DNA of 64,000 nt from a virus (IMGVR_UViG_3300042542_002916:1-64000), one strand, 5' to 3'; positions 31,424-55,094 are shown, counted from the stretch's first letter. The notes: generated by a model from the letters alone, not told the origin. Numbers and translations: made by a program.

Positions 31424-32059
31424 TTAGTACGGAGTAGCTCCACTAAAACTTGCATGAGCTGTTCCAGCCCAGAAACCGCCGCTGGAGCCATCAAAATAAG
31501 AGTTTAAAGTAGTTGATTTTTCTAACATAACAGAGTCCACATAAAAAATCTCCCCTGCTACAGCTGAACCTGTAACTACTCTAATAATCATAAAATTTGC
31601 AGAACCTTGCTTTGTCACAGGAGCGCTTAAACGAACCCAGTTGCCTGTATATGATAAAGATTGAATACCAATGTTTGTTGCCGAAACTGTGCTACTAGAG
31701 TTTTGAGCCTCGTACTGTAACTGACGTAAAAAATAGTTTGCTGGTGAATTACCGCTGGCAAGTTTTACATATGCACTTAGGTAATAAGTGCCTTCTCCTG
31801 CTACAAGAGGAATCATAGATCCCTCGTTGCCAAACTGAGCACCTGACCCAGAGCCGTTAGTAACAGCTAGAGATGCAGAGCCAGTATTAAACTCACCTGT
31901 TGTTCTAGCAAGAGTTCCTCCTGCAGTTGCAGTCCAATTCGTTGTATTTACCTCAAAAGAAGGGTTAGTAATATAGTTAACTCTATATCCAAGTGCTGCA
32001 GGTTCTGCAGGGTTCTTTAAAAACCCAGCTCCGCTAGCTATTCCTAAACTTAATGGCAT
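31424..32059 (-). CDS. Carbohydrate-binding-module (CBM4/9-like) virion protein
   Basis: NYITNPSFE..W, YYLSAYVK, WVRLS, FYVDSVMLE and YFDG motifs. Confidence 0.7.
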   Translation of the reverse strand: MPLSLGIASGAGFLKNPAEPAALGYRVNYITNPSFEVNTTNWTATAGGTLARTTGEFNTGSASLAVTNGSGSGAQFGNEGSMIPLVAGEGTYYLSAYVKLASGNSPANYFLRQLQYEAQNSSSTVSATNIGIQSLSYTGNWVRLSAPVTKQGSANFMIIRVVTGSAVAGEIFYVDSVMLEKSTTLNSYFDGSSGGFWAGTAHASFSGATPY

Positions 32060-32071
32060 ACCTGCTCCTAA

Positions 32072-33342
<1,271 letters not shown>

Positions 33343-33352
<10 letters not shown>

Positions 33353-33492
33353 TTACAGCTCCTTTTCTTCCACATCCAAATATGATGAACTGCCATAATA
33401 GCCATAAGAACCCACATTAACTGCATCTCTGTAAGAGGAAATGACCAATCAGTAGAAGTAACTATTGTCTGATTATGGTTATCATGCTCCAT
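33343..33492 (-). CDS. 49-aa Met/His-rich membrane peptide (not in the ORF track)
   Basis: [49 protein letters not shown]; GAGGGGG RBS; fills the gap and overlaps both neighbours. Confidence 0.7.
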
Positions 33493-33733
33493 TAGTTTCC
33501 CCCTCTACTAAAGAAACTTTTCCTTGATAGCAACAGTGAGCTGCTCCATTTAAAGTCTCAACTGCTGTATTGTAAATACCTTCAAGAAAATCTTCACGTC
33601 CAGTAGCCCATACTACATCTGAAATTAGCACCGTCTTGTTATCAGAGGTGTTTTTAATAGTTAGGTTAAGCAGTGGAGTGTTTGCGCTTTCTTCTGCTTT
33701 CCATTCAAATTTTCCTACTATTTCCATTGTCAT
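33482..33733 (-). CDS. Hypothetical protein (HCC motif)
   Basis: ATGA coupling to the upstream collagen-cupredoxin gene. Confidence 0.65.
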
Positions 33734-35007
33734 ATTGCTGAGATATCCTTAATCGTGATAACTCCAAGCATTCCGCTATGGACTGAGCATTGATAAGCAT
33801 ATGCACCACTTATATTAGCTGGTACTTGCCAGTATAAAGTTCCTGTTACCTTACCTTGAGCATTTGAACCTGTAGTAATTGTTCCATCGGGTGTCACATG
33901 GATTAAACCTGTGTTGTAGTTTGCTGCGCCAAGTGCAGTTTTGATTAGGAAAGGATGCCCAGTTACGGCTAAATTAAAGGCAATGGTAGTTCCTGAAATT
34001 GCGTAAATAGTAGGATTATTTCCAGTGTATTGATTATCAAAAAGATATGCTGAAGATCCACTATTAGTTACAGATAATCTAGTAATTGCAGGATATGCAA
34101 CATCGTCAATAGTTGTTGATGCTGCAGTTGCGTCTGTAGTACCACTAAAAGTTGCAGCGCCAGTTGGACCCGTTGGTCCTGTAGGACCAGCACCAGTAGG
34201 ACCTGTAGGCCCAGCAGGTCCAGTTACCGTGCTTGCAGCACCAGTTGGTCCAGTCGCTCCAGTAGCCCCAGCTGCACCACTTGCACCAGTAGCACCCGTT
34301 GGTCCTGTTGGTCCACCCGATGGGCCAGTTGGGCCTTCAACACCTGTCGCACCTGTAGGACCAGTTGGTCCACCCGATGGACCTGTTGGACCTGTAGGTC
34401 CAGTCGGTCCCGCGCCAGTCGCACCTGTTGGACCAGTTACACCACTAGCTCCAGTTGGGCCCACCGGGCCAGTTACGCCACTACCTGTTCCAGTACCTAC
34501 TTCTTCCCAGCCAGCAGAAACTTTAACTTCTAAATTTTCTGTTTCAGTATTGAATCGTACATACCCTGTCTCAGCTGATGCAGGTCGTTGTCCTGTAGTC
34601 CCAGATTCTAAATACAAAGTATTGTTATCGCCACGAATAACTTTATTAGTTAAAGTTTGAGCAATATTTTCTGGTTGAACAGAGTCTTCTTGAGATACAC
34701 CATTAATACTAAAAGAGGTTTGTGCGACAGAAGTTCTGACATAAATTGTGTCACCACTATTTATAGCAAATCTAAATGTTTCAAAAGACTGCCCTACTTC
34801 TACAACTAAATTAGAAGCTATATAAGCATATTGAGAAGCTTGAACAGTATTTGGAGGTACTACCCAAATACTTACTTTTGTTACAGGAGTTGCATTAATT
34901 GCTTTATTTGCGACCACAACTGAAACAAGATAGTTTGCATTTGAATTGTAAAGTACCGAGTCTGTGTTAGCTGCAGGGTTGCTGAGTCCAAGTCGTAAAA
35001 TTGGCAC
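33730..35007 (-). CDS. Collagen-like fibre protein with a C-terminal cupredoxin-like domain
   Basis: GPT repeats; GHPF...YQCSVHSGM type-1 copper ligand pattern; AGGAGG RBS plus GTG. Confidence 0.8.
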
Positions 35008-35016
35008 CTGAGCCTC

Positions 35017-38000
35017 CTAAGCCTGAGCTTCAGACCATGAAAGTTTGGCTGATGCTAGTGTTGAGTTTCCTGATAAACGAGCTACTGCAATAGTAATAAT
35101 ATCAGGTCCGTCAGGGAAAATGCTGTCTCCACCGAGGATTGAGTTAGACATTTCAAACAAACTACTTACGTTTGCCACTGTAGTTCCTATAGCTCCGCGG
35201 AAGTTGTAAATTTGAACTCCACCAGAAACAGTATCTGCTGCGGTATGTTCAACAATCTGAGTCAATGAAGGTGAGTCAACTCCAACAAAGTTCAAGTTAT
35301 TTAGACGTGGGTTGAGAAGAACTTTAACGTCAACAAGCTGATCAGTTGAAACTGCAATTTCATTTAATCGAAGCTGCATTCGGTTAATAACATCTCTATC
35401 TCCAAGTTTACCTGTCAAACCTTCAGATACAGATGGGCTCAAACGAAGAGAGATAAGAGGCTGATAGTTTGGACCAGAAGTATTGTTTAGTGAGCCATCT
35501 GGATACAAGAAGTATGTAAACTGTGTGTTTCCTTGACCAGTGAAGTCAATTACTTCAGCAATAATTGAACCAGATTCAACCAAAATGGTTTGATTAGTTC
35601 CAACAGATGGATATGTGAAGGTATTAGTTCCAGTTACAGTAACTGTAAAGGCTCCGTTTGCAACTCCAGTTGGAGAAGTTGCTGGCTGATTTCCGTTTAG
35701 GACAGTGTTTGCTACTCCGTAAACTCCAACATACATACCAGTTGTTAGGTTATGAGGTGCAACTGTAGTAACTGTCATAACGTTAGATGTTCTTGCAAAT
35801 GATGCACCAGTGCTGATTGTTGATGCTAGAGGTGATAGATGTATCAAGTTTGCAGAGTTAGCAATTACCTTATACCGTTGACCGTTTGTTAGATTTGCAA
35901 GAGTATTAGATCCAACAATTCTAGTTGGAGGGTTTTGTGTATTTGCTCCTCGTACACCGCTTGATCCAATGGACTCAAACTGAACAATGTCACCGCTTCT
36001 AAAACCGTGAGTTTGTACAGTCATCAAATCATTTGTTAAGTTAGTACCAGTAGAAGCAAACGACTTAGCGGTTGTTCCACGAATATCCAAAGTCTGGCTG
36101 TTTTGGCTGAAGAGGTATGCATTGTCATCATCAAAACGACCATCCATCATTACCGAAGTTCCCCAGTGGAATAGGGAAGGAATGTATGTTGGGTTTTCAT
36201 ATGTTACAACTTCATAACGAGCTGGCATGTTACCAGAGCGCAAGTATGATTCAAACAAGTTGTTGTTGTGAACATATTCGTGAACATACTGAACTTGTCC
36301 ATCGGTTGTCTTAAATCCGTAGCGAATTTTACCTGCTCCGTACCAAGAGTAGTCAATGTAAGCCATCTGAATTCTTGACAAATCAAGATTGTAGCCAGTA
36401 ACACCAGTTCCATCACAAGGGTCAATTGACCAGTCTTCTTGTGGAGTTTTTGTGTTAACAGTCTTTGTCACAATGATGCCTGACTTAGCAGGTGTAAGTG
36501 AGTGAACTGTTGTAGTTCCAACACTTGAAAGGTTTACAAAACCTTCAGCATCTGGTGCAGATTTTAGTTTAAATGTGTTTCCATTGATAAGACTGATGTA
36601 GTAAGTTCTACCGTTTACCAATCCACCAATTGGTTCACCGTCAATTGAGTTATAAACAACTGGTAGTAGATCAGTTAAACCATGTCCATTAATTGTAAAG
36701 ACATCTGTTGATGTATTCACAACTGTTGCTGGATTAAATTCTTTCTCTGGTCCAGATGAGCCCTTATATTCAGGACGCACTGACATACGGGTTTCTGAGT
36801 CAATTTGTGTAATGCGATAGCTTTGACCGCGCATAACAACAAAATCGCCAACATCTAACTGCGCTTGGAAACTTGTTCCAGTTCCAAAGATAAGTTCTGA
36901 ACCTTGCAAAGCAGCAGCAGTTCCACCTATTTGCTGAGTTGAAGAACGACGCACTGCGTAGATTTTTTGTCCATCAAACTCAAAATACATACCGTTTTGG
37001 AAGTCATACATACCAGTACGGACAGCTCCACCTTGCCACTCACGGACGTAGAACTGAGGGAATCCATAAGCACGGTTTTCTGGAATACCGCCATCTCTGC
37101 TGATTCTAAAAGTTGTTAAATTGATTACTGTTACTTGGAAAGCTCCATTGTAAATAGTACTTGTATTTCCATAAGAATCCTTTGCTTCACTAATAAACAC
37201 AAAGAGGTCATTAATCAAACCATGAGGACGACGAGTCTTACATTCAATAGTTGTAGCACTAGTCTTAATCATGCTTTCAAGGTCGATAGATGGCTTGAAG
37301 TTGATACCGCAAGAAGTCTGAAGACCTTTACCTGACTGGTAGCGGAAGTACTTACGGGTTTGACGAACAATTGAACCCCAAGAAGTTCCACTTCCAACGG
37401 ACATTTCAACGCCGCCGTCGAATGGACGGTGAAGGCTGTAACCTTCTGGACGAACATAGATAAATGTTGGATAAGAGTATGAAACTGCGTTGTATGCAGT
37501 TGCATACGGGCGATCTACAGAAATCTGTGTATCAGAACCAATAGCTGCAATACGACGAATAATTGGTCCTACTGGGATTGTTTGTGTAAATGCAAACAGT
37601 GAACCAGTTCCTACTGTACTAAAATCTGCAGGGCTTGTATTAGTTGTTGCATCTGCTGCAGACCCATGTAATGTTATTTGAGTATCACTAATCTTACGAA
37701 CAAAGTAGTAATAACCGTCAACCAATGGGCTAGGAGATACTCCACCATTTGCACCAAATTTAACTGCATCACCCGTCGCAAAGTTGTGTGTGCGTGTAAT
37801 ACGGTTAGTTACAGTATCAACGTTTACTGCAGCAAAATCTGTTTGATCTGCATACAGTCTAAAGGCTAAACCAGTTCCAGCTGCAGTTATATCAACTGTG
37901 TTAGTTCCAGCATTAGCGTCTGCTTCTGTTGGGTGCAACGTTAAAGTTGTAGCACCTGTTCTACGAACAAAGTAAGAATCGTTATTTGTTAATCCAGTTG

Positions 38001-41000
38001 GAGAAGTTCCTCCACCATTGTTAAATATAACTTGACAACCTGTAGAAAAATTATGTGCTTTAGTGATTACATCTGTGCTTGTATTAATATCTGATGCTGC
38101 AAAAATTACAGACAGATTGACAGCATTTGCACTTATGGTAAATGCAGTGCCAGTTCCAGCAGTTGTTATGTCTATAGTGTTGGTTCCTGCAATAGCATCT
38201 GCAACAGTTGTATGAAGCGCAATTGTTGAGGAGGATGCGGCACGAACATAGTAAGTAGCTCCCTCAACTAGAGGTGCAGGAGCTGTTCCACCGCCTGCAG
38301 AGAAGACAACTTCTTGTCCTGTAGGTAACGTATGGGCTTTACCAATTAAATTAGTTGATGTGTTTACATCTGCTGCTGCAAATGTTAAAGTTCCATGACT
38401 TTTTGTTATGTTAGGTGGGAATAGACGGAATCTATCTCCCACTTTAAGGATTTTTGTAAACTGAGTACCAGTACCAGTCACAAGAACAGAGCCAGAGGCA
38501 ATAGTTACTGAACCAGCTCCAGTTACGTTACCATTAATTTGAGAAGAAGTGAATTGATGAGCAACACCTGTTCCAAAATCAGCAACAGTAACTACAACAC
38601 CTGTTGCTGCATTTGCAGCAGATGATGCAAGACGTATGTAGTCTTTATTAATTGCAACTACATAATAGTTTGTCAAATCTGTCAAACCTGAGATTGCAGT
38701 TGCTGCAGGTCCTTTATCGTATAGAACTTTTGTTCCAGTCAAGAAACCATGAGAAGGGATGAAAAAAGCGTTTTGAACAATATCAATTGTAGATCTTGGG
38801 TTAAATATTTTTTCAATTTCTGGAACTTGACCTTGTGCTGTAACCGTAAATGTATTTGGAGCACCGTTAGGCAGAGTAGTAATGTTGTAAATACCATCTG
38901 GAGTCTTTGACAAAGACTGTAAAGTGTGTCGCCCAACACCTGCTGGTGTATCAGTAATGTTCACTGCAGTTCCAGCAACAGCATTTTCAGGAGTTGTTGC
39001 AAGTTTAATATTATCTTGATCAACAAAGATAATGTAGTAAGGAGTTGCAGTTGTTAAACCATTAACAACAGTTTGACCCTTAGCATCATAAAGAACCAAT
39101 TCACCTTGTAAGAACCCGTGACTTGGGAGGGTAATTCTGTCATCTGCATAGTCAAGTGCAGTAATCAGCAATTGCTGAGTTCCAGTTCCTGCACCAGTGA
39201 TGTCAGCAAAAGATGTAAGAGCAGTAGATGTAGCCAGTCTTACAATGCTATTGTCGACTTTTTTAATGTAGTAAGTACCGTTATTGGATAAACCTGGAAT
39301 TGTTGTTCCACCGTTATTTGAATAACGAACAGTTTGACCATCTACTAATCCGTGGTTTGCAATATATAGAGTGTTTTCAGTAATATTAACTGTTGCAAAT
39401 ATAAAGCTATGAGCTGTTCCAGTTCCTGCAGCAGTAAGATTAATATAAGTATTAGAATTAAGAGCAAGTTTTAGTCTAATTCTGTTTGCATCAAGTACTT
39501 CTTGAACATAATATGTAGATCCGTTTACAAGCGGTACAATAGAAGTTCCTCCGCCATTGCTGTAAATTAAAGGCTGATCTACTTGGAAACCATGACTACT
39601 AATTGTCAAAGTGTCCTCAGCAACGTTTGCAACAACTCGACTGATAGTTGAGCTTGTTGTTGTTTCTCTTGTAGAAGGAAGAGTTAAGTTGATAGTTGTA
39701 AAAGTCGGGCTAGGAGTACTGCTTAAGCGATATGTAAAATTGTTTACAGTATTTACATAATATGTAGTTGCATTTGTAATACCTGCAGGAGCCGTACCAT
39801 TAAAGTTTACAACTACAGCTTCACCATTTACAAGGTTATGAGCTGCTGGAGAGTGAATTAAATCGTTTTGAGAATCATAGTTAATTGGAAGAAATGCATG
39901 ATATGAACTACCTGCAGGGGCAATTGCAATCTTATTTGTTCCAGCTTCAGAATCTGCAGCAGTTGGGTAAACTTCGTTACCAGTTGTAAACGAAGAAATA
40001 ATTGACATTACAACAGAGCCTTCACCAGTGTTAAAGGAAGCAAGGTTTGTAATAGCAGCACCGTTAAATGTGTTTTGTCCATCAAATAAACCTGTAGATG
40101 TTGCTACGTCTGTTGCTTTAGCTGTGATAAATGAACCACCGCCACCACCAGAATGACCTGCAGTAAGAGAACGAGCACCGCCACCACCTGAATAGCCTCC
40201 GCCACCACCAGACTGTCCTGTGATATCACCGTCTGATTGACCGCCACCACCAAAACCGCCATACCCACCTATGCGAGCGTTTGTTCCCATAGATAGTCCG
40301 TCAAGGAATGACCCTCCACCGAGGAATATGGTTCCGCTCACGTTACTGCTTTCACCGCGAGAGAAGAAACCTCCACCAGCAGCAGAGCGACCACCAGCAG
40401 AACGTCCACCAAAACCAATTGCTCCACCTGCAATAGTGTTATTTGTCGATGTTCCAGCTAGTTGATTAAGTACACCATCTCGACCTGCACCAGTATTTGA
40501 TTCACCAGAACCGCCACCTGCAACAAATAAAGGCTCGTTACCAGTTTTACGAACAACAAATGTTCCACCACCAGAGCCACCCCATACACCACCAGAGGAA
40601 GGTGCAGCGCCTCGCTGACCAACAACAATCGTGATAATTTCACCTTTAGTTAAAGCAACTCGGCCTCTAACAACTGCACCGCGTCCAACTCCACCTGTAC
40701 CAGAACCATCAAATCCAGCGGCTCCAGATGCAGTAAATTGGTAAATACCAGAAATTGGAACTACCCAGTCTTGATAGCCTTGAAAAGCACCTTGCGTAAG
40801 GTTTTGTCCATGCCAAGAAGTGCTATATCCAGCCAGTATTTGTGCGCTATTTGGACCAACTCGTCCTGTTTGACCGCATGTTGTGAATGTGTGAGTGTTT
40901 CCTGAAATTGTATATAAAGACTGGACTCCAGTAAATGTAGCTGTTACGTTCTTTAAAAAGTATGTGTTTCCAGAAGTCAAACCAGTGATAGGTGTCCCAG

Positions 41001-41364
41001 CTGTAAAGTACTTGACAGCTTGATTGCTAGGAGTAGAGCTACCAATATTAAGAACAGTATCGTTAATTACAGGAGCATTGAGAGTAACTCCTCCAGCAAC
41101 AGCTCCAGTAATGTTGATATCTACAGAACTGCTATTTAAAAATTTTAAAACTCTGTTAGATGCTTTTTGTGCATACACAAGGGAACCACTTGTTACACCT
41201 GTAACTTGACCTACTCCATCAGAATAGATGTAGCTAGTTCCTGTGTTGATTGCTGCAGGAATGTTAGAATCTCTAAAATAGATAAAGTTTTCTACATCAT
41301 TAACATTGGCTCTTCTGAATGAGTGAACACCAGCAGCGCCAACAGCAGATACATTTATAGCCAC
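35017..41364 (-). CDS. Giant repeat-rich virion structural protein (2115 aa)
   Basis: Many 'HG..G..V.Y...GL..G..YYV' beta repeats, one Gly-rich domain, HRPFDGGV and RQTRKYFRYQSGKG; GGAGG RBS plus GTG. Confidence 0.8.
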   Translation of the reverse strand: MAINVSAVGAAGVHSFRRANVNDVENFIYFRDSNIPAAINTGTSYIYSDGVGQVTGVTSGSLVYAQKASNRVLKFLNSSSVDINITGAVAGGVTLNAPVINDTVLNIGSSTPSNQAVKYFTAGTPITGLTSGNTYFLKNVTATFTGVQSLYTISGNTHTFTTCGQTGRVGPNSAQILAGYSTSWHGQNLTQGAFQGYQDWVVPISGIYQFTASGAAGFDGSGTGGVGRGAVVRGRVALTKGEIITIVVGQRGAAPSSGGVWGGSGGGTFVVRKTGNEPLFVAGGGSGESNTGAGRDGVLNQLAGTSTNNTIAGGAIGFGGRSAGGRSAAGGGFFSRGESSNVSGTIFLGGGSFLDGLSMGTNARIGGYGGFGGGGQSDGDITGQSGGGGGYSGGGGARSLTAGHSGGGGGSFITAKATDVATSTGLFDGQNTFNGAAITNLASFNTGEGSVVMSIISSFTTGNEVYPTAADSEAGTNKIAIAPAGSSYHAFLPINYDSQNDLIHSPAAHNLVNGEAVVVNFNGTAPAGITNATTYYVNTVNNFTYRLSSTPSPTFTTINLTLPSTRETTTSSTISRVVANVAEDTLTISSHGFQVDQPLIYSNGGGTSIVPLVNGSTYYVQEVLDANRIRLKLALNSNTYINLTAAGTGTAHSFIFATVNITENTLYIANHGLVDGQTVRYSNNGGTTIPGLSNNGTYYIKKVDNSIVRLATSTALTSFADITGAGTGTQQLLITALDYADDRITLPSHGFLQGELVLYDAKGQTVVNGLTTATPYYIIFVDQDNIKLATTPENAVAGTAVNITDTPAGVGRHTLQSLSKTPDGIYNITTLPNGAPNTFTVTAQGQVPEIEKIFNPRSTIDIVQNAFFIPSHGFLTGTKVLYDKGPAATAISGLTDLTNYYVVAINKDYIRLASSAANAATGVVVTVADFGTGVAHQFTSSQINGNVTGAGSVTIASGSVLVTGTGTQFTKILKVGDRFRLFPPNITKSHGTLTFAAADVNTSTNLIGKAHTLPTGQEVVFSAGGGTAPAPLVEGATYYVRAASSSTIALHTTVADAIAGTNTIDITTAGTGTAFTISANAVNLSVIFAASDINTSTDVITKAHNFSTGCQVIFNNGGGTSPTGLTNNDSYFVRRTGATTLTLHPTEADANAGTNTVDITAAGTGLAFRLYADQTDFAAVNVDTVTNRITRTHNFATGDAVKFGANGGVSPSPLVDGYYYFVRKISDTQITLHGSAADATTNTSPADFSTVGTGSLFAFTQTIPVGPIIRRIAAIGSDTQISVDRPYATAYNAVSYSYPTFIYVRPEGYSLHRPFDGGVEMSVGSGTSWGSIVRQTRKYFRYQSGKGLQTSCGINFKPSIDLESMIKTSATTIECKTRRPHGLINDLFVFISEAKDSYGNTSTIYNGAFQVTVINLTTFRISRDGGIPENRAYGFPQFYVREWQGGAVRTGMYDFQNGMYFEFDGQKIYAVRRSSTQQIGGTAAALQGSELIFGTGTSFQAQLDVGDFVVMRGQSYRITQIDSETRMSVRPEYKGSSGPEKEFNPATVVNTSTDVFTINGHGLTDLLPVVYNSIDGEPIGGLVNGRTYYISLINGNTFKLKSAPDAEGFVNLSSVGTTTVHSLTPAKSGIIVTKTVNTKTPQEDWSIDPCDGTGVTGYNLDLSRIQMAYIDYSWYGAGKIRYGFKTTDGQVQYVHEYVHNNNLFESYLRSGNMPARYEVVTYENPTYIPSLFHWGTSVMMDGRFDDDNAYLFSQNSQTLDIRGTTAKSFASTGTNLTNDLMTVQTHGFRSGDIVQFESIGSSGVRGANTQNPPTRIVGSNTLANLTNGQRYKVIANSANLIHLSPLASTISTGASFARTSNVMTVTTVAPHNLTTGMYVGVYGVANTVLNGNQPATSPTGVANGAFTVTVTGTNTFTYPSVGTNQTILVESGSIIAEVIDFTGQGNTQFTYFLYPDGSLNNTSGPNYQPLISLRLSPSVSEGLTGKLGDRDVINRMQLRLNEIAVSTDQLVDVKVLLNPRLNNLNFVGVDSPSLTQIVEHTAADTVSGGVQIYNFRGAIGTTVANVSSLFEMSNSILGGDSIFPDGPDIITIAVARLSGNSTLASAKLSWSEAQA

Positions 41365-41392
41365 TTAAAGACCTCCATACAAAAAGTTACCA

Positions 41393-44300
41393 TTAGGACA
41401 CAACTCCGATTTTGTAACGGACAACAACAATTCCTGAACCGCCAGAACCGCCATAGTTATTACTGCTGTAGTGAGAACCTCCACCACCACCAGAACCTGT
41501 GTTTTGTGCTGCGTCGCCACCTGGAACGTTTGTCTGAGAGTTAATGCTTCCGTATCCACCAGGGTTAGCAGTATTAATACCATCAACACCACGGTTATCA
41601 AAGTTGTTAGCAGCACCACCGCCACCGCCTCCGCGACCACCAGAGTTGTCTTGGTATGCGGAGTAGTTAGAACCACCACCACCAGCTGCCCAATAGAAGC
41701 TCGGGCCCAGAATAGTATTTAGTGTTCCAGCACCACCTCTAGGGGGATTGCTTTGACCAGCAGTAGCAGAACCACCACCACCAGCTGGGTACCAAAAACC
41801 TGAACCAGTTCCACCGTCTTTACCTTGCGAAGCAGTTGCTGTACCACGACGGCCTCCACCATATTCACCGTCAGTAGATCTGTTGCTTTGAGCGTTTCCG
41901 CCACCACCAGATGCACCACCACCAGAACCTACAGTCTGACCATTATTCAAACCACCAGCTGGGTTGTTACCACGGTCGTGGTTAGATGCACCACCACCAC
42001 CACCAAACGCTACTAAGTTAGCGTTAGTTCCAATAAGTGAAGAGCTTGCACCTTCAAAACCTCGACGGTTACCAACACCTGAGTTGTTACCGCTACCACC
42101 AGCACCTACCACTACTGCATAGTTTCCTGCTGCGGCTGTAAATGTGCCAGCTAGATAACCACCAGCTCCACCGCCGCCGCCCATATCTGAACCGCCGCTA
42201 CCGCCTCCACCAATTACCATGTATTCAATGGTGTTGCTTCCTGTAGTTGCGTTACCAGCTACTGAAACTGCAAGAGTTGCTGATCCAACGCTTGTAAATC
42301 TGTGAACAGCATAAATGTCGTTTCCTACTGTAAGGCTTGATACAGACCCTCCAGTTGCAACAGGGTAGTCACCGCTAGGACTTCCAGTAATTGCGTAACG
42401 AAGTACAACAATTCCTGAACCACCAGCACCACCAGCACCAGTGTAGTGAGAACCTCCACCACCACCAGAACCTGTGTTTGCTCCTGCGTTACCACCAGCA
42501 ACACTTGAGTTGGTGTTAATGTTACCGAAACCACCAGAAGTTGCTGCATTGATACCATCAAGACCAGGGTTGCTGAAGTTGTTATAAGCACCACCGCCAC
42601 CGCCTCCGCGACCACCACGGTTGTCTTGGTATGCGGAGTAGTTAGCACCACCACCGCCAGCTGCCCAGAAATAGTTAACGCCTAAAATAGCATTTGCAGT
42701 TCCTATACCACCTGTAGGTGGGTTGCTTCGACCAGCACCACCAGAACCGCCACCGCTACCTGGATACCATGTACCAGAACCAACTCCGCCGTCTGTACCC
42801 TGACCAGCAGTTCCTGTACCTCTACGGCTACCGCCATATGCACCATCTGGGCTGCGATTATCTTGTGCACCACCGCCACCACCTGATGAACCTCCACCAG
42901 AGGCAACAGTTTGACCGTTGTTCACACCACCAGCTGGGTTGTTACCACGGTCGTGGTTAGATGCACCACCACCACCACCAAGGGCGGTTATGTTTACACC
43001 AGTTCCAATAAGTGAAGATACGTCACCTTCAAAACCTCGACGAGCAACTTGAGGTCCTGGCGCTCCTGCACCACCAGCACCTACGACTACTGCATAATCT
43101 CCTACTGAAGGAGTAAATGTTCCAGCTCTATAGCCACCAGCTCCACCGCCGCCGCCCATATCTGAGCCACCGCCGCCTCCGCCACCTACTACTAGATACT
43201 CAACACTTGATCCACTTGGGACAGATGAAACAGAAAAAGTAGAAGAACCAACAGCGGTAAATGCGTGTACTCTAAAGAATCTTCCTTCGCTATATGCATT
43301 TGGAAGAATTGTTCCACCAGTTGCAGTGATAGGGATAAAAGTAGCTTCATTGACTGTAAAATTGTGAGCATCGTAGACTGTTTCTACAAAATAAAACTTT
43401 TGGTCGTAGTTTGATACAAAATTACCACCAACAGAAGGAGCTGCATATTGAAGCATCTCGTTTTTAACAAAATTGGAATTTTTAACATGAAAAATGTCTT
43501 TATCTATAGATACACCAATTTTTGTAAATGTTTGACTGCCAGAACCGCCAGATGGAGTCAAACTGGAAGCATCGGTAGGGAGGCCCTTCAACCTAATGTT
43601 ATATAAATTTGGACCAGCTTCGGTAATTTGAGAAATAAAATATGTAGTGTTATTTGCTAAACTAGTTGCAGCAGCGCCTGAAGTTGAATAGCGAACCATC
43701 GCTCCAACGTAGTAATCAAGACCCGCTCCAGCGGTTACTTGAACTAAAATATCTGTAGCTGTAAAACCAAGAATAGTGCAGTTACCGTTTGGTGCTGTAG
43801 CACTAGCACCAGCTGCTCCAACATAACCTTGATTACCGCCATCAAATTCTAGAGGGGTTTCAAGTAGAACTGTAATAGGGATTTCTGTAACAGGGTTACG
43901 GTTGTTTCCAGCAAAAGTACGAGCTTGATTAGCTAATTGCATTGTTCCAGACATAGTGGAAACAATGTCAATTACATCTCCGTCTGGAGTTGCGCTTACT
44001 TGAAAAGTAGATACACCTGAAACATTGAGAGAGTTAGTTGTTTTTAGAAAAACAATTCCTCTAGGATTATCAAAGAAATACCCAGTCGATGCTGGAACTG
44101 TTAAATTGTAATATAAAGGTGTTCCAAGAGGTTGATTAGCAAAATTTTCTGTTCCATGTGTAACAGCAATTGTGTCGTTTGTTGTATTTACTCCTGTAAT
44201 TGTGCTTGTTGCACCGCCAACTACTCCGCTGTTGGACCAATCAATATTAAAAGTTGAAAGAGTGTTAGAACCATCAAAAGTCTGAGCTGTTGCAGAGTTA

Positions 44301-44968
44301 GATGAGTCAAAAGATTTAGCTGAAGTGTTTGAAGCTTCAAACTCCTGAGAAATTGTTGAGTTAAGGTTGAGGAAGTAGAACGGGGTATTAAGACCAAAAC
44401 CGTGAGTAGAGTCTGTTTTTACAGTAAGGGTTGAGACTGGCTCTGCGTCTGTTGTAATACCTTCTGCATCTGCAATACGAATCTGAGAGCCCTGAAAGAA
44501 TTCTCCAGTAATAATCGACGTGTAAAGGTCTTCAATAGCATTATTACCATTTTGCTCGTCTTTACATAGATATGTAAAGGTAGTCCCGTTAGGGATAGAG
44601 TTAATAATGTAAGCACCGTCTGCGGTAACTGACTTAGTTCCAGTTACGTTAATTGGAATACCGACAGCTAAACCATGTTCTGTAGCTGTAACTACAGTGA
44701 TTTCACGAGTTCCAGTGTTCGTAGAGATAGATGTGATACCTGGAATTGTGGTATCACCGCTCTTAGAGAAGAACGAAGGGGTATTGTTAATAAGCTCAAC
44801 GGTTTCCCACTTAGTAGGCTGTAGACCATACTCAAAGTCGGTATCAATTAAGTTTTCTGGCTGGGAAATACGGAGCTTGGTTACTGGATCAATAAACTCT
44901 TTTGGAAAACGAATCTCTCCGCCTGTGCCGCTAGAGCTGCTGCCGCCGCCACCTAAGAAACCTGGCAT
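41393..44968 (-). CDS. Large virion structural protein with two C-terminal glycine-rich domains
   Basis: KLRISQPENLIDTDFEYGLQPTKWE N-terminal motif, HG repeats, and duplicated EYLVVGGGG...GGSGIVV.RY domains. Confidence 0.8.
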   Translation of the reverse strand: MPGFLGGGGSSSSGTGGEIRFPKEFIDPVTKLRISQPENLIDTDFEYGLQPTKWETVELINNTPSFFSKSGDTTIPGITSISTNTGTREITVVTATEHGLAVGIPINVTGTKSVTADGAYIINSIPNGTTFTYLCKDEQNGNNAIEDLYTSIITGEFFQGSQIRIADAEGITTDAEPVSTLTVKTDSTHGFGLNTPFYFLNLNSTISQEFEASNTSAKSFDSSNSATAQTFDGSNTLSTFNIDWSNSGVVGGATSTITGVNTTNDTIAVTHGTENFANQPLGTPLYYNLTVPASTGYFFDNPRGIVFLKTTNSLNVSGVSTFQVSATPDGDVIDIVSTMSGTMQLANQARTFAGNNRNPVTEIPITVLLETPLEFDGGNQGYVGAAGASATAPNGNCTILGFTATDILVQVTAGAGLDYYVGAMVRYSTSGAAATSLANNTTYFISQITEAGPNLYNIRLKGLPTDASSLTPSGGSGSQTFTKIGVSIDKDIFHVKNSNFVKNEMLQYAAPSVGGNFVSNYDQKFYFVETVYDAHNFTVNEATFIPITATGGTILPNAYSEGRFFRVHAFTAVGSSTFSVSSVPSGSSVEYLVVGGGGGGGSDMGGGGGAGGYRAGTFTPSVGDYAVVVGAGGAGAPGPQVARRGFEGDVSSLIGTGVNITALGGGGGASNHDRGNNPAGGVNNGQTVASGGGSSGGGGGAQDNRSPDGAYGGSRRGTGTAGQGTDGGVGSGTWYPGSGGGSGGAGRSNPPTGGIGTANAILGVNYFWAAGGGGANYSAYQDNRGGRGGGGGGAYNNFSNPGLDGINAATSGGFGNINTNSSVAGGNAGANTGSGGGGGSHYTGAGGAGGSGIVVLRYAITGSPSGDYPVATGGSVSSLTVGNDIYAVHRFTSVGSATLAVSVAGNATTGSNTIEYMVIGGGGSGGSDMGGGGGAGGYLAGTFTAAAGNYAVVVGAGGSGNNSGVGNRRGFEGASSSLIGTNANLVAFGGGGGASNHDRGNNPAGGLNNGQTVGSGGGASGGGGNAQSNRSTDGEYGGGRRGTATASQGKDGGTGSGFWYPAGGGGSATAGQSNPPRGGAGTLNTILGPSFYWAAGGGGSNYSAYQDNSGGRGGGGGGAANNFDNRGVDGINTANPGGYGSINSQTNVPGGDAAQNTGSGGGGGSHYSSNNYGGSGGSGIVVVRYKIGVVS
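41405..43325. repeat. Tandem duplication (~975-nt period) of the glycine-rich domain
   Basis: 56-nt perfect identity at 41951-42006 versus 42926-42981, plus several further identical blocks. Confidence 0.85.
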
Positions 44969-45052: not shown

Positions 45053-45703
45053 TTATACACCCATCCACCACGACATAGATGTTGAAAATGAACCTTGAGG
45101 GCCAGTTGGTCCTGCAGATCCAGTTGAACCACCCTGTGTTTCAATAAATACACCATTACTATAAACATATGTTTTTGCAGTAGATGTGTTAAACCAAGCA
45201 TCACCGTTTACAGCATCTTCAATATCTGGTTGCACTGCTGATGCAGTGAATTTACCTACAGGACCTGTAGGACCCGTTGGTCCCGGAACCTCAGACTGTG
45301 CACCAACTGGACCCGTTGGTCCTGTTTGTCCACGAGGACCAGTAGGTCCTTGCGGTCCAGTTACGTTTGAGTCAGCACCTGTTGGACCAGTAAAACCACG
45401 AACACCTTGTGCACCAGTAGATCCTTGTGGACCAGTAATACCTTGAGGACCTGTTGGGCCCGTTACACCTTGTGGACCAGCAACAGTCGAATCAGGACCA
45501 GTTGGACCTTGAATACCTTGAGGACCTGTAGCACCAACGCCACCTGTAGGTCCTGTTACACCCTGAATACCTTGAGGACCAGTTGGACCAGTTGGGGTTA
45601 CACGAAGAACCTCCCAAACTGCCCCGGTCCATACCCAGGTGTTACCGCCACCAGTAAACTGTTCGCCTACTGCTGCTGGTGTTGGAAAATCAATCGCTGC
45701 CAC
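45053..45703 (-). CDS. Short collagen-like protein
   Basis: [16 protein letters not shown]-terminus, GPT repeats and a GDAWFN module. Confidence 0.8.
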
Positions 45704-45752
45704 TATGGTCCGTCCTTTCTCTGCTCAAATTACTATTCTACGTTATTAATGC

Positions 45753-45920
45753 TTATTCAATATATGGTTCTATAATTCCAACATTTTTTGCATTTACATA
45801 TGATGTTGCCCAATTTATTGCTGCTGTCAAAGACTCCCAAGGACCGCATTCGTCGATAATGGTGTCTCCTTGAAGAATCTGAACCAATGGTCCATCTTCT
45901 ATGATGATATAAGTAAACAT
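45753..45920 (-). CDS. 55-aa hypothetical protein (not in the ORF track)
   Basis: MFTYIIIEDGPLVQILQGDTIIDECGPWESLTAAINWATSYVNAKNVGIIEPYIE; AGGAG RBS 5 nt upstream. Confidence 0.7.
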   Translation of the reverse strand: MFTYIIIEDGPLVQILQGDTIIDECGPWESLTAAINWATSYVNAKNVGIIEPYIE

Positions 45921-45928
45921 TTCAGCTC

Positions 45929-46843
45929 CTAAACCGCGTACGCAATCTTGCCAGAGTTTCCTACAGCAAGTCCTAGAACTGTAGTCACATACAGACCATT
46001 GATATTACTCAAACCAAAACTTGACACCCTTTGAGCCCAGTTGACTCCATCAAAAGAAGTTCCAAGTTTTCCAGAAGCTCCTGCTGCAACGTAAGTATCT
46101 GCAGTCACATCAACTGTTCTCACCGCAGAGGCTCCAAATGAACTTGCTGGGAATGATTGAGTCCAAGCAGTTCCAGTTGCTGAAGTAGCAATCTTTCCAG
46201 AATCTCCTACAGCCACAAATTGACTTCCAGCTGGATTTGAAGAGACCGCGTAGATAATGCTTGTAATAAAAGAAGAGCTTCTTTGAGTCCAAGCAACACC
46301 ATTTGTTGATGTAGCCAATTTTCCATCATACCCAACTGCAACAATAAGACTGTTGGTTGCGTAGACACCATTAATAAAAGAAGTTCCAAACGAGGAGGTT
46401 CGTAGTGTCCAAGTAACACCGTCTACTGAGGTAGCAAGTTTTCCTGAACCTCCAACTGCAACCCACAGCGAGGCAGAGGGAGCATAAGTAACTCCCAAAA
46501 TTGTGCTTGCTCCAAAAGCAGAAGCTCTCATAGTCCAGTTAATTCCGTCAGGAGATGTAGCTAATTTTCCTGAACTTCCAGCAATTACATATCGACTATC
46601 GCCATATGCAACTGCATAGATATTGCTCCCAGAAAACTGAGAATCTCTTTGAGTCCAAGTATTAATATCTGTAGAAGTAGCTAATTTTCCAGAGCTACCA
46701 ACTGCTACAAACTGCCCAGCGCCACTAGATGCAACTGCATTGATGTTTGTTGTCCCAAATGAAGAGTTAGCAACTTGTTGCCATGCAACAGGAACAAACG
46801 GAACAGTAAGGGTTGCATGCATAGCATGCGTGGCAATTAACAT
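45929..46843 (-). CDS. Beta-propeller (BNR/Asp-box-like) protein
   Basis: About seven repeats of VAVGxxGKLATSxDGxxWTxRxSSFGxxxI. Confidence 0.8.
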   Translation of the reverse strand: MLIATHAMHATLTVPFVPVAWQQVANSSFGTTNINAVASSGAGQFVAVGSSGKLATSTDINTWTQRDSQFSGSNIYAVAYGDSRYVIAGSSGKLATSPDGINWTMRASAFGASTILGVTYAPSASLWVAVGGSGKLATSVDGVTWTLRTSSFGTSFINGVYATNSLIVAVGYDGKLATSTNGVAWTQRSSSFITSIIYAVSSNPAGSQFVAVGDSGKIATSATGTAWTQSFPASSFGASAVRTVDVTADTYVAAGASGKLGTSFDGVNWAQRVSSFGLSNINGLYVTTVLGLAVGNSGKIAYAV

Positions 46844-46845
46844 AA

Positions 46846-48750
46846 CTACACCGACAAGTTTCCGCTAAGTAGCCATGAGTTGTTTCCAAGCTTAATTAAG
46901 GAAGCAACCGCATAACGTGCCTTAGTTGTATATCGAGAACCTTCAGAAAGAACGTTAACTCCTGAGGCCCCAGTGATTGTTACTAATCCAATACCCAACT
47001 GAGTTAAAACAATTTGAGTTCCAACATCGAATGTATAGCCATCTGTCCCATCAAGAGGAACTGTCACAACGGTGGCACTAGAACTGTTGACTTTTACAAT
47101 TGTTGCTTTATCACCAGCAGTAAGAGTAATTGAGTTTAGATACTGAGCTCCAGTAAGGTTAAAGAACGCTGGACCTGTTGGACCAGCAGGACCAGTTACG
47201 CTAGGCCCAGTAATACCTTGTGGCCCAGTAATACCTTGTTCACCTTGTGGTCCAGTAATACCTTGAATACCTTGTGGTCCAGTAATACCTTGAATACCTT
47301 GTGCACCTTGTGGGCCAGTAGGACCAACAATTGGACCAGCGTTTACCCATGTAGAACCATTCCACACATAAAGGCTTCCGTTGGCAGTAACAATCCAAGC
47401 ATCGTTTACAGCATTTCCAACTGATGGAAGATTTCCTACAGCAGCAACGCTTCCTTTAACAGTAATAGATGTTCCTTGTGCACCTTGTGGACCTGTTGGT
47501 CCAATAGAGCCAGACCCAAGAACAAAGTTCCAAGAAGCGTAAGTATTACCATCACCATTGATAGCATCAACTGTCATTGTTACAGCTGTAACATTGATAA
47601 AAGTAATAATGCCTTCCATATAGTTAGATGGAAAAGCAGAGCTTGCAAGACGAGCTCTTGTGCCTACTGCAAATGCATCAATTTTATTAACTGTAAAGTT
47701 TTTACTTCCAAGACCAATTGTTACGGTTGAAGTAGAAGTAACTCCAGCAAAACTTGCACCAGAAGCACCTGTTGGGCCTGTAGCACCTTGAGCGCCTTGT
47801 GCACCAGTTGGTCCAATTGGTCCTTGAGGACCAGTTACTGTTGACGCAGCACCTGTCGCTCCAGTTGCACCTTGTGCACCAGTAGGACCTGCAATTGTTG
47901 AAGCAGCACCTGTTGCACCTGTAGCACCAGCTTCACCACGAAGACCTTGTGGACCAGTAATACCTTGAACACCTGTTGCACCAGTTGCACCTGTTGGTCC
48001 AGTTGGTCCACCAGATGGACCAGTCGGCCCAGTTACACCAGTAGGGCCAGTTACAGATGGACCAGTTGCACCTGTTGCTCCGTTAGGACCAGTCGCGCCA
48101 GCAAAACCACGAGGACCAGTAGGACCAGTAGGACCAGCATTACCTTGAGCTCCTGTTGCACCAGTTGGGCCTTCAGATCCAGTTGGACCAGTACCACCTA
48201 ATGGACCTGTTGCACCAGTTGGACCGCGTGCTCCTTCAGAACCTGTTGCGCCAACTGCACCAGTTGGACCATAAGGACCAGTTGGGCCAGCTACATATAA
48301 ACCTTGTGCTCCAGTTGCACCAGTGAGACCACGAGGTCCAGTTGCTCCCGTTGGGCCTGTCGCTCCCGTAGGACCTGTGACAGTTGAAGCTGCACCCTGT
48401 GCACCCGTTGCACCCGTTGGACCAGCAGGTCCAATGTTGCTTGATGCAGACTCAACCCAGTAAGAATCAAAGTAAACATAAACACGACCAGTTGAAGAGT
48501 TAAACCATGCGTCTCCTGTTACAGGAGTTGGACTTACAGGTGGTGAATCAGCAGCTACTGTAAAACGACCTGTTGGTCCAGTAGGACCTGCAACGCTTGA
48601 AGCGCTACCCTGTGGACCTGTAGGACCAGTAGCACCTACAACTGAAGAAATAACTAAGTTCCACGCTGTACCAGTCCAGATCCAAGTTTGAGATCCTGAG
48701 GTAAACGTACTATTTAAACTCGGTGAGTTTGGAAAATCAATAGCAGCCAT
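46846..48750 (-). CDS. Collagen-like fibre protein with a C-terminal knob domain
   Basis: MAAIDFP N-terminus, long GPT/GAT tract, LYVWNGS.W module, C-terminal knob. Confidence 0.82.
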
Positions 48751-48759
48751 TTTTTACTC

Positions 48760-49455
48760 CTAACCCAAAACCGACTCGTAGGTGAATTGAATTAGAATTT
48801 TGTCGTTTGCAGAAAACAAGAAAGGAGTACTTTCTGTTACAGCAACACCTTCATCATATGTTGCACTCTGAGAGTGTATATAAAGCTCAATTCTGGTGTT
48901 GACGTTGTTATTAAAAATTGCTGTACCAAAGTAAGTGATACCTGGTCCTTCGTCGCGCATAACAACTTGACCTACTGGCTGATAATTTTCAATAACTCCA
49001 GCAGCAGGAAGACTTACTGTATAAGTACCTAAACCACGGTTAAATCCAGCGGTTCCAGCAATAATACGAATTTCACCCATAATAGTTGCACCAAGATTTA
49101 CATAACGACCAGTGATACTTCCATTACCAAGTGTTGGGTTTGTTGTGCTTCCATAAAGAACTGGTGTGTATGTAGTCCATGGAGTAAGTGCAAAACTACC
49201 TGTTGGACCTGTTGCTCCCGCTGGTCCCGTTACTGTGCTAGCTGCACCTGTAGGTCCAGTCGGTCCCGCGCCACCTGTAGGACCTGTTGGTCCAATCGCA
49301 GTTGAGTTAGTTCCTGCAGGTCCTGTAGGGCCTGTTGGTCCAACTGCACTGGTACGAACTAGACGCCAAGAAGAGCCGTTCCAACGATATGTATTAATAC
49401 CGTTTGTGTATACATCATTGAGCGATGGGCTTGGTGGAAAATCGATTGCTGGCAT
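48760..49455 (-). CDS. Short collagen-like protein with a WTTYTP-type C-terminal head
   Basis: MPAIDFP, GPT tract, WTTYTPVL..NG..TGRY. Confidence 0.8.
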   Translation of the reverse strand: MPAIDFPPSPSLNDVYTNGINTYRWNGSSWRLVRTSAVGPTGPTGPAGTNSTAIGPTGPTGGAGPTGPTGAASTVTGPAGATGPTGSFALTPWTTYTPVLYGSTTNPTLGNGSITGRYVNLGATIMGEIRIIAGTAGFNRGLGTYTVSLPAAGVIENYQPVGQVVMRDEGPGITYFGTAIFNNNVNTRIELYIHSQSATYDEGVAVTESTPFLFSANDKILIQFTYESVLG

Positions 49456-49472
49456 TGTTATCTACCCCTTTC

Positions 49473-54989
<5,517 letters not shown>

Positions 54990-55094
54990 TGGCGGCACTC
55001 CAGGTCTAAGTGGCGTTTATATGAAGACTGCACAGGTAACAGACTTCTCGACCGTTTATATTCTACGCGGTTTTTGGAAGGGCTAATCTGAAAC

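Follow-up and report, generated by a model that had tools for sequence, protein, structure and literature searches.

Chaperone-usher pili such as Fim and Pap are built from subunits that lack their last beta strand, the missing strand being supplied by the N-terminal extension of the next chain. In the T5-like phages DT57C and DT571/2, two proteins, LtfA and LtfB, replace the single Ltf protein of T5 and, according to the abstract of that study, form a composite fibre (PMC4728585). Here we describe two adjacent genes, A and B, at positions 35,017 to 44,968 of IMGVR_UViG_3300042542_002916:1-64000, a 64,000-nucleotide stretch of viral DNA (the window). A and B arose long ago by the splitting of a single virion structural protein, a member of PHROG 5838 / T4-like cyanophage gene cluster 863 and probably a tail-fibre protein. 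A ends with strands 1–4 of an SH3-like repeat followed by an adhesin-like cassette, and B starts with the missing closing strand of such a repeat. According to structure prediction, the first ~20 residues of B probably insert into the incomplete barrel of A, tying the two chains together. Taken as a whole, fission with strand complementation and an exchangeable tip is our favoured explanation of the locus, and a likely one.

The two open reading frames (ORFs), both on the minus strand, and all the peptides quoted from them were found in place as described in an original prediction that a model had made from the sequence (Table 1). As that prediction also noted, B has its own GGAGG and GTG start and is out of frame with A: the stop codon of A is a TAA (41393-41395), the GTG of B lies at 41364-41362, the frame of B is shifted by one base relative to A and is itself preceded by a TAA directly 5' of the GTG. 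A and B are separate cistrons. Both match PHROG 5838, A over residues 24-193 (positions 100-273, E 3.9e-20) and B at E 1.6e-123, and A matches PHROG 2295 also.

By megablast, the 10-kb region matched nothing among GenBank phages, and homologues came from protein-level searches. In tblastn, the N-terminal ~170 residues of A and the C-terminal ~800 residues of B were found in one annotated ‘virion structural protein’ of many cyanophages, and the C-terminal region of B gave matches in 98 phage records. Single-ORF homologues covering both A and B, which it had been proposed to seek by BLAST, are thus present in cyanophages and other phages, and span 1095-2260 amino acids (aa). The shorter, ~1100-aa forms (1095-1109 aa) are those of S-RSM4 (SRSM4_036, 1108 aa), S-PM2 (S-PM2d173, 1095 aa), Syn1 (Syn1_216), S-H9-2 (gp188) and S-MbCM7 (S-MbCM7_180). 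Long forms include WDS61269 of S-BM3 (2087 aa) and UOF81037 (1736 aa), the latter from a 40-kb podovirus-like genome, and single ORFs of 1544-2260 aa are found in 19 of 21 more distant IMG/VR loci. A profile built from the five ~1100-aa cyanophage proteins is divided between the two genes, with A 24-193 matching positions 101-267 (E 4.3e-26) and B 1301-2115 matching positions 314-1100 in four pieces. Since single-ORF relatives cover both, A and B descend from one protein.

The distribution of motifs tells the same story. The N-terminal IDTDFEYG..TKWE domain of PHROG 5838 / T4-GC 863 is present in A (the motif being A 41-55), and the C-terminal HR[PA]FDGGV, RQT[RK][RK]YFRYQSGKG and terminal SW.E[AS]QA motifs are all found in the translation of B (HRPFDGGV and RQTRKYFRYQSGKG at ~B 1300-1335). 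That these motifs usually occur in one polypeptide had been proposed from recall, and is borne out by the single ORFs that carry the N-terminal domain of A together with the C-terminal region of B. In the window and in 55 related loci, the two regions sit on two cistrons rather than one chain, so that only A and B together make one PHROG 5838 member. The middle region of A (201-541) is lineage-specific and is found in no fused protein, and the N-terminal extension of ~70-90 residues seen in the single-ORF forms is absent from A, which starts instead with a Gly/Ser-rich stretch. In one otherwise single-ORF relative (L063:5486-7437), the C-terminal region shifts frame between ~5821 and 5926, which may be a frameshift error or an independent break away from the A/B cut position.

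The split is old, fixed and confined to one lake-phage lineage. It is found in 55 IMG/VR contigs covering both genes and in the Actinomycetia phage DSL-LC01 (GenBank OQ999401), a 129-kb phage from a lake metagenome that is the closest named relative of the window and in which the two genes are annotated as coding sequences of 824 and 2853 aa. The authors of DSL-LC01 assign the Actinomycetia host by prediction only, and their paper does not discuss the A/B genes. Across the 55 IMG/VR loci the spacer between the genes varies from 3 to 62 nucleotides (nt), a purine-rich GGAG-like motif usually lies 5' of the B start, which is usually ATG, and the relative frames 0, 1 and 2 of A and B are represented 23, 15 and 17 times, respectively. 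A search with A 1-545 returned 1329 matches, the best 120 clusters of which (69-96% identical) are all 759-1198 aa in length, whilst a search with B 1-190 returned 271 proteins, nearly all of them of 1873-2292 aa and nearly all starting at the first residue of B. A HMMER search with A 201-560 against 1.84 billion representative proteins gave 60 matches, the longest of 1534 aa, and no fused protein. Finally, Logan contigs from four lake-water metagenome runs, one of which is possibly the window's own source, cover 41000-41496 with zero differences or gaps.

The cut falls within a repeat of ~74 residues that occurs, within the window, only in A and B. The repeat model, built from eight copies in B and refined in one round of iteration, has the consensus tLtI..HGF..G..V.Y...GG..i.GL..g.tYYV..v....i.La ... 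i.lT.aGtG.aH.F. In an AlphaFold2 model of B 1-830 (mean predicted local distance difference test, pLDDT, 82), intact copies have five strands each, for example at 585-587, 598-602, 617-623, 628-632 and 653-656. Foldseek returned weak matches of the repeat to Spt5 KOW, Agenet and E1 FCCH domains, which point to an SH3-like barrel. The E1_FCCH family (PF16190) scored 28.7 bits at B 1781-1812 only, below its cut-off of 29.5, and the structural likeness to E1 is weak (4p22_B, E 0.16, 92 columns); ‘FCCH-like’ is used here for a type of fold, not as a family assignment.

The last repeat of A, residues 491-541 of which correspond to positions 1 to ~51 of the 74 in the model, has strands at 492-494, 505-507, 525-531 and 536-540 in the AlphaFold2 prediction and ends ...YFVETVYDAHNFTVNEAT at residue 541 (nt ~43346), where a Gly_rich_2 cassette begins. 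Conservation of the A core ends at this same residue, after strand 4, in ~160 distinct homologues (...Y[FY]V.T.YD.HN[FY].L..). B, in turn, opens with AINVSAVGAAGVHSF (B 2-16), which matches the closing strand of an intact repeat (YINLTAAGTGTAHSF, B 640-654), and B-type N-termini share the pattern M-[PA]-I-[ND]-[IV]-T-x-x-G-x-x-G-x-H-[ST]-[FL]-x-[KR]-x-N-V-N, the closing segment of the repeat. By these sequence comparisons the cut separates strand 5 of the repeat from strand 4, with the cassette lying at the cut and the orphan strand opening B. The split repeat of the original prediction is well borne out, both by the point at which the A core stops and by the closing-strand motif with which all B homologues open.

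The start of B is conserved: residues G9, G12 and H14 are invariant in 44 B-type sequences with overall identity to the window down to 27-38%, N20, V21 and N22 are at least 90% conserved, and conservation is stronger across B 1-25 than in the 85 residues that follow (mean top-residue fraction 0.69 vs 0.52). On a model made from 201 closing segments of intact repeats, B-type N-termini score a median of 6.3 bits (10.3 for the window), compared to ~0 for the N-termini of 315 other ORFs (maximum 7.3), 0.1 for shuffled B N-termini and ~-0.3 for the segments that follow the truncated repeat in cis in 44 distinct A homologues. Mann-Whitney tests of the B-type N-termini against controls gave p values of 2e-21 to 7e-12, to be read with the relatedness, and hence non-independence, of the B sequences in mind. 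The window has 90 ORFs of 80 aa or more, and that of B has the only N-terminus to score (9.2 bits vs 3.7 for the next best).

Structure prediction places this strand on A. In B 1-830 folded without A, residues 1-20 come out as low-confidence coil (pLDDT 53-67), and in A modelled alone the last repeat has a pLDDT of 60-90, the preceding repeat being above 90. A complex was then modelled from A 390-865 (the last two repeats and the whole of the first cassette, kept so that a cis candidate could compete with B) and B 1-110, alignments being given for both. The interaction prediction score from aligned errors (ipSAE) was 0.61 (runs 0.55, 0.61 and 0.63), compared to 0.00 for the best of three controls; of 80 solved complexes, 58 attain the mark applied, as do 2 of 110 mismatched pairs, a calibration that is rough because own alignments were used. 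Runs share at least 83% of contacts and the pLDDT of the partner is at least 74. In this model, B 1-25 is placed, in line with the proposed strand complementation, on A 484-543, the confident interface being between A 484-543 and B 1-25, 29 and 31. The tightest pairs are between A 505-511 (strand 2) and B 14-19, with B F16 also contacting A 493 and A 526, whilst the cassette of A does not occupy the site and A 544-550 falls outside the confident interface. Sequence and profile searches of solved structures with A, B and the ~1100-aa profile found only LTK, at the nested domain of B described below, so the result does not reflect memory of a solved complex.

At the cut lies an exchangeable module. 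The Gly_rich_2 family (PF21722) matches A in two stretches (69.1 bits vs a cut-off of 24.3, E 7.3e-19), and A homologues of ~840-870 aa have one glycine-rich copy only. Sorted by cassette, the distinct A cores fall into classes with two glycine-rich units (76 cores), one glycine-rich unit (40), fibrinogen/COLFI-like (22), He_PIG/Ig-like (19) and other (2), although one of the last two was probably misfiled by the sorting rule and is a further He_PIG/Ig-like case, leaving probably 1. A quick maximum-likelihood tree (LG+G4) built from 91 A cores requires at least 8 changes of cassette class, or 13 if one and two glycine-rich copies are treated as separate, and fibrinogen-like and glycine-rich cassettes are both found in distant core clades. 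The fold of the A cassette resembles, by Foldseek, the mycobacteriophage Bxb1 tail-tip chain 9d93 and the cyanophage Pam3 fibre 7ypx (E 9e-4 to 5e-3), and also the ALK/LTK glycine-rich domain. A constant scaffold with an exchangeable recognition tip fits this turnover, as does the suggestion that the split frees a C-terminus for display, the repeated exchange of cassettes being observed and the strand reassembly itself model-predicted. Contigs of all four metagenome runs fragment within the second glycine-rich cassette (41467-41800), where a linked two-base variant (41643 G>C and 41644 A>G) is present at one third to over half of the depth; these suggest either that cassette variants co-exist or that the repeat causes assembly breaks.

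B itself contains a domain nested in one of its repeats. B 165-460 (296 residues) adopts, in the model, the TNF-like plus glycine-rich fold of the LTK and ALK ectodomains (7nx0, 7nx1 and 7mzy; Foldseek E 2.3e-14 to 5e-14, target template modelling score 0.68-0.74) and is flanked by the two pieces of the second repeat of B, B 114-164 corresponding to repeat model positions 13-67 and B 465-490 to 47-73. The corresponding family, ALK_LTK_GRD (PF12810), scores 21.8 bits at B 205-454, below its cut-off of 24.5, but many B homologues have a precomputed match, and phmmer of B against LTK gave E 5.7e-5. The family grows by nesting domains inside the loops of SH3-like (FCCH/KOW-like) beta-barrel repeats. 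In the B homologue of DSL-LC01, WJZ48558 (L001:4222-12783), and its clade (2843-2897 aa), ~730 extra residues (~705-1434), amounting to about eight domains of the type-2 kind introduced below, lie between parts 665-705 and 1434-1480 of one SH3-like repeat. In the window (37495-38542), B 941-985 and 1268-1290 look like one domain interrupted by three complete repeats (pattern G.v.v..GS..V.G.GT.F...l.vGD.f.l...y.I..I.sdT.i.v..pY), an apparently uninterrupted copy of which is found at B 1481-1535 and another in the ~1100-aa cyanophage forms. A search of the ESM Atlas with the C-terminal region of B returned unnamed viral clusters only.

A second domain may also have been divided. The original prediction noted half of an FCCH-like domain in A and an orphan second half in B, and we compared both with a 51-position model of this second (type-2) domain (tV.T...HG...G..i.i.g......nG.y.V..v....F.Y). 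Intact copies in S-RSM4 (261-307, positions 1-50, E 6e-19) and S-PM2 (252-296, positions 2-49, E 1.3e-17) lie at a co-linear position in the ~1100-aa forms, after the first such domain. A 182-202 matches positions 1-21 (E 0.29, or 0.0044 for the DSL-LC01 homologue) and B 823-844 matches positions 30-49 (E 0.038). In the podovirus-like single ORF both pieces lie in one chain with the repeat array between them (253-282, positions 1-30, E 0.43; 783-808, positions 22-47, E 0.001). The half in B is highly conserved among B homologues and sits between two complete repeats. The complementary model positions and co-linearity with the intact copy thus bear out this part of the prediction, but the E-values are weak and profile-profile comparison is unspecific for the B half: its best match is the second half of a different repeat's hairpin (E 0.0041), and hhalign of the A half, although it places the first half of the intact S-RSM4 domain on top (259-273), is not significant (E 0.11). 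On sequence grounds the pairing of B 823-844 with A 182-202 is plausible by co-linearity and statistically weak. The single-ORF cyanophage proteins (S-PM2d173, SRSM4_036, Syn1_216) and the long forms (WDS61269, UOF81037) are homologous throughout, and in the long forms arrays of these SH3-like repeats lie nested, as here, between both orphan half-domains; the difference is that here the nested array is cut within a repeat and A ends in exchangeable cassettes.

If this second pair holds, A 203-541 and B 1-822 belong to a single nested excursion out of a conserved base, with the cut close to its distal end. The base may well need a partner: no part of A is more conserved than A 1-250 (window 44218-44968; column entropy 0.22-0.47) and none is modelled with lower confidence (pLDDT 29-50 when folded alone), and the high conservation but poor modelling of A 1-200 suggests that it needs the C-terminal region of B or another partner. 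We put forward tentatively, as possible rather than probable, that two rebuilt domains hold the chains at once (A 487-541 with B 1-20, and A 182-202 with B 823-844) and that fission at a nested-domain loop is a general route. Were this true, the chain would be broken only where the variable adhesin cassette and the ALK/LTK-like domain of B sit, a two-junction nested domain would have become a one-junction, freely exchangeable receptor-binding tip, and the locus would be one case of a widespread ‘split-domain joint’ principle in phage fibre assembly.

Several points weigh against completion of the A repeat by B. The score of the complex reflects the confidence of the model itself, and a model that recognises the family's intact copies can fill in a truncated one on their pattern, so that the score would indicate fit rather than assembly; the residues of A at the interface show no greater conservation than the adjacent repeat (entropy 1.54 vs 1.28); FIPITATGG..., the segment that follows in cis in the window, reaches 7.1 bits on the closing-strand model, near the 10.3 of B; and the A repeat joined to the B peptide gained no more on the whole-repeat model than it did with random B 18-mers, a control that is uninformative because B is full of repeat pieces, for which reason the closing-segment-only model was used instead. 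The unremarkable conservation of the A interface and the joined-repeat test would suit a history in which the fission is real but the B motif is a remnant kept for folding of the first repeat of B or for translation initiation, with A attaching through its N-terminal domain, or without contact to B, and its truncated repeat either stable in itself or capped by the cassette. The behaviour of A 1-200 is as expected for a partner-needing segment, and the main attachment could be there. We consider this remnant explanation unlikely. The conservation of B 1-25 exceeds that of B 26-110 and its invariant glycines and histidine fall in the closing-strand pattern; in the B-only model it is disordered and not packed on the first repeat of B; in the complex model it is put on A 484-543 at an ipSAE of 0.61, against 0.00 for the controls; and cassette starts differ between classes, so that there is no conserved cis cap.

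If the opening strand of the A cassette closed the A repeat in cis, leaving the B N-terminus superfluous, this would account for the 7.1 bits of FIPITATGG..., for a short strand at 548-550 in the A-only model and for extension of the whole-repeat match over A 491-551 to position 67. FIPITATGG... is, however, the conserved start of the glycine-rich unit, ATGG... opening every such unit including the second copy in A at ~869 (YPVATGG...), which has no repeat before it; the fibrinogen-like and Ig-like cassettes open quite differently, cis segments in general do not score, and the B peptide was placed on the repeat even with the full first cassette present, making closure in cis very improbable. 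As for A and B being really one polypeptide, through assembly or sequencing error, programmed frameshifting or stop-codon readthrough, the two genes do share a strand and an ancestral gene, and only 28 nt separate them. Recoding is excluded by the variable spacer, the GGAG-like motif and the use of all three relative frames, the frame of B is closed by a stop immediately upstream, the junction is identical in the four metagenome runs and recurs as a split in the 55 contigs and OQ999401, and the 1.84 billion proteins searched with A 201-560 held no fused form. Both recoding and the assembly error envisaged in the original prediction can be set aside.

Returning to fission with strand complementation, the simplest history begins with an ancestor of the lake-phage lineage in which an adhesin-like domain would have been nested in the strand 4-5 loop of one repeat; its return linker would then have been replaced by a stop codon, ribosome-binding site and start codon. 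The order of these events is our inference, and a nested origin of the A cassette is suggested because the ALK/LTK-like domain of B still occupies the same loop of another repeat. After translation, the first ~20 residues of B would fill the barrel of A by fragment (donor-strand-like) complementation, and the type-2 halves, together with packing of the A base domain on the C-terminal region of B, may provide a second tie. With one in-frame junction and conserved flanks, the cassette of A would be easily replaced, and could act as a plug-in host-recognition tip in adsorption.

Table 1 Features of the A/B region, with positions counted in the window and residues in the encoded protein
Feature	Position	Strand	Description
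Gene A	41393..44968	minus	1191 aa; conserved core 1-541 and two glycine-rich cassettes; ORF and translation
Base domain	44435..44911	minus	A 20-178; IDTDFEYG..TKWE and one complete type-2 domain (91-136, E 2.5e-16)
Candidate orphan first half, second type-2 (FCCH-like) domain	44360..44434	minus	A 179-203; TLTVKTDSTHGFGLNTPFYF = A 180-199
Truncated SH3-like repeat	43346..43510	minus	A 487-541; strands 1-4, without closing strand; predicted interface with B
First glycine-rich cassette	42371..43345	minus	A 542-866; Gly_rich_2
Second glycine-rich cassette	41396..42370	minus	A 867-1191; repeat of first cassette
A/B spacer	41365..41392	minus	28 nt; GGAGG at 41372-41376, 7 bases 5' of the GTG of B
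Gene B	35017..41364	minus	2115 aa; ORF and translation
Orphan closing strand	41299..41364	minus	B 1-22; AINVSAVGAAGVHSF and conserved NVN; closing-strand model 10.3 bits
ALK/LTK-type TNF-like/glycine-rich domain	39985..40872	minus	B 165-460, in strand 4-5 loop of the second repeat of B
Candidate orphan second half, type-2 (FCCH-like) domain	38830..38913	minus	B 818-845; PDGIYNITTLPNGAPNTFTVTA = B 822-843
Conserved C-terminal region	35020..37494	minus	B 1291-2115; HRPFDGGV, RQTRKYFRYQSGKG ... SWSEAQA; profile positions 314-1100 in four pieces

The IMG/VR virus record that holds the window is 76 kb in length, with a completeness estimate of ~58%. The neighbours of A and B match collagen-like tail-fibre families, with exonuclease and glycosyltransferase matches in addition. 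The collagen-like tail-fibre genes around the pair (45053-54998 and 31424-35007) encode proteins of 216, 634, 231, 1841, 425 and 426 aa, and although very unequal in length all match the same fibre PHROGs.

Natural protein fissions are rarely documented this fully: relatives without the split, the precise point of the cut within a domain and what followed from it are all still there to be read. The locus also suggests a concrete rule for fibre modularity: a domain is nested in a loop and the chain is then cut after it. In metagenomic phages, adaptor and scaffold proteins could be matched to each other by an orphan first strand at an N-terminus together with a truncated upstream repeat. In these abundant lake phages, for which the authors of DSL-LC01 predict Actinomycetia as hosts, the C-terminal cassettes of A are the likely variable host-recognition parts, and a short peptide and barrel of the A/B kind could serve as a natural split-domain tag.

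Literature searches on the fission of phage tail-fibre genes, or on strand complementation in such fibres, brought up nothing that describes this arrangement. A parallel exists with the chaperone-usher pili, where, as predicted here, an incomplete beta domain receives a strand from the N-terminus of the next chain. Unlike those pili, the barrel here is SH3/KOW/FCCH-like and not an Ig-like pilin without its G strand, no chaperone or usher gene is in view, the protein belongs to a phage virion rather than a secreted pilus, and the link predicted here is one of A to B alone, with an unsplit ancestor that can be traced, instead of a polymerising series. DT57C and DT571/2 are alike in that the single fibre gene of relatives has given way to two genes, with more than one receptor-binding part, but the abstract of that study gives no sign of a cut within a small domain or of a strand-supplied joint (PMC4728585). 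The Pam3 fibre 7ypx and Bxb1 tail tip 9d93 are polyglycine-II adhesin tips of phage fibres, which the A cassettes resemble; this likeness, and that of B to ALK/LTK, concerns the displayed modules and not the A-B joint. Compared with these systems, the novelty lies in an SH3-like fold, in single-ORF relatives that still exist, in a cut made within a nested array and in the position of the cassette at that cut.

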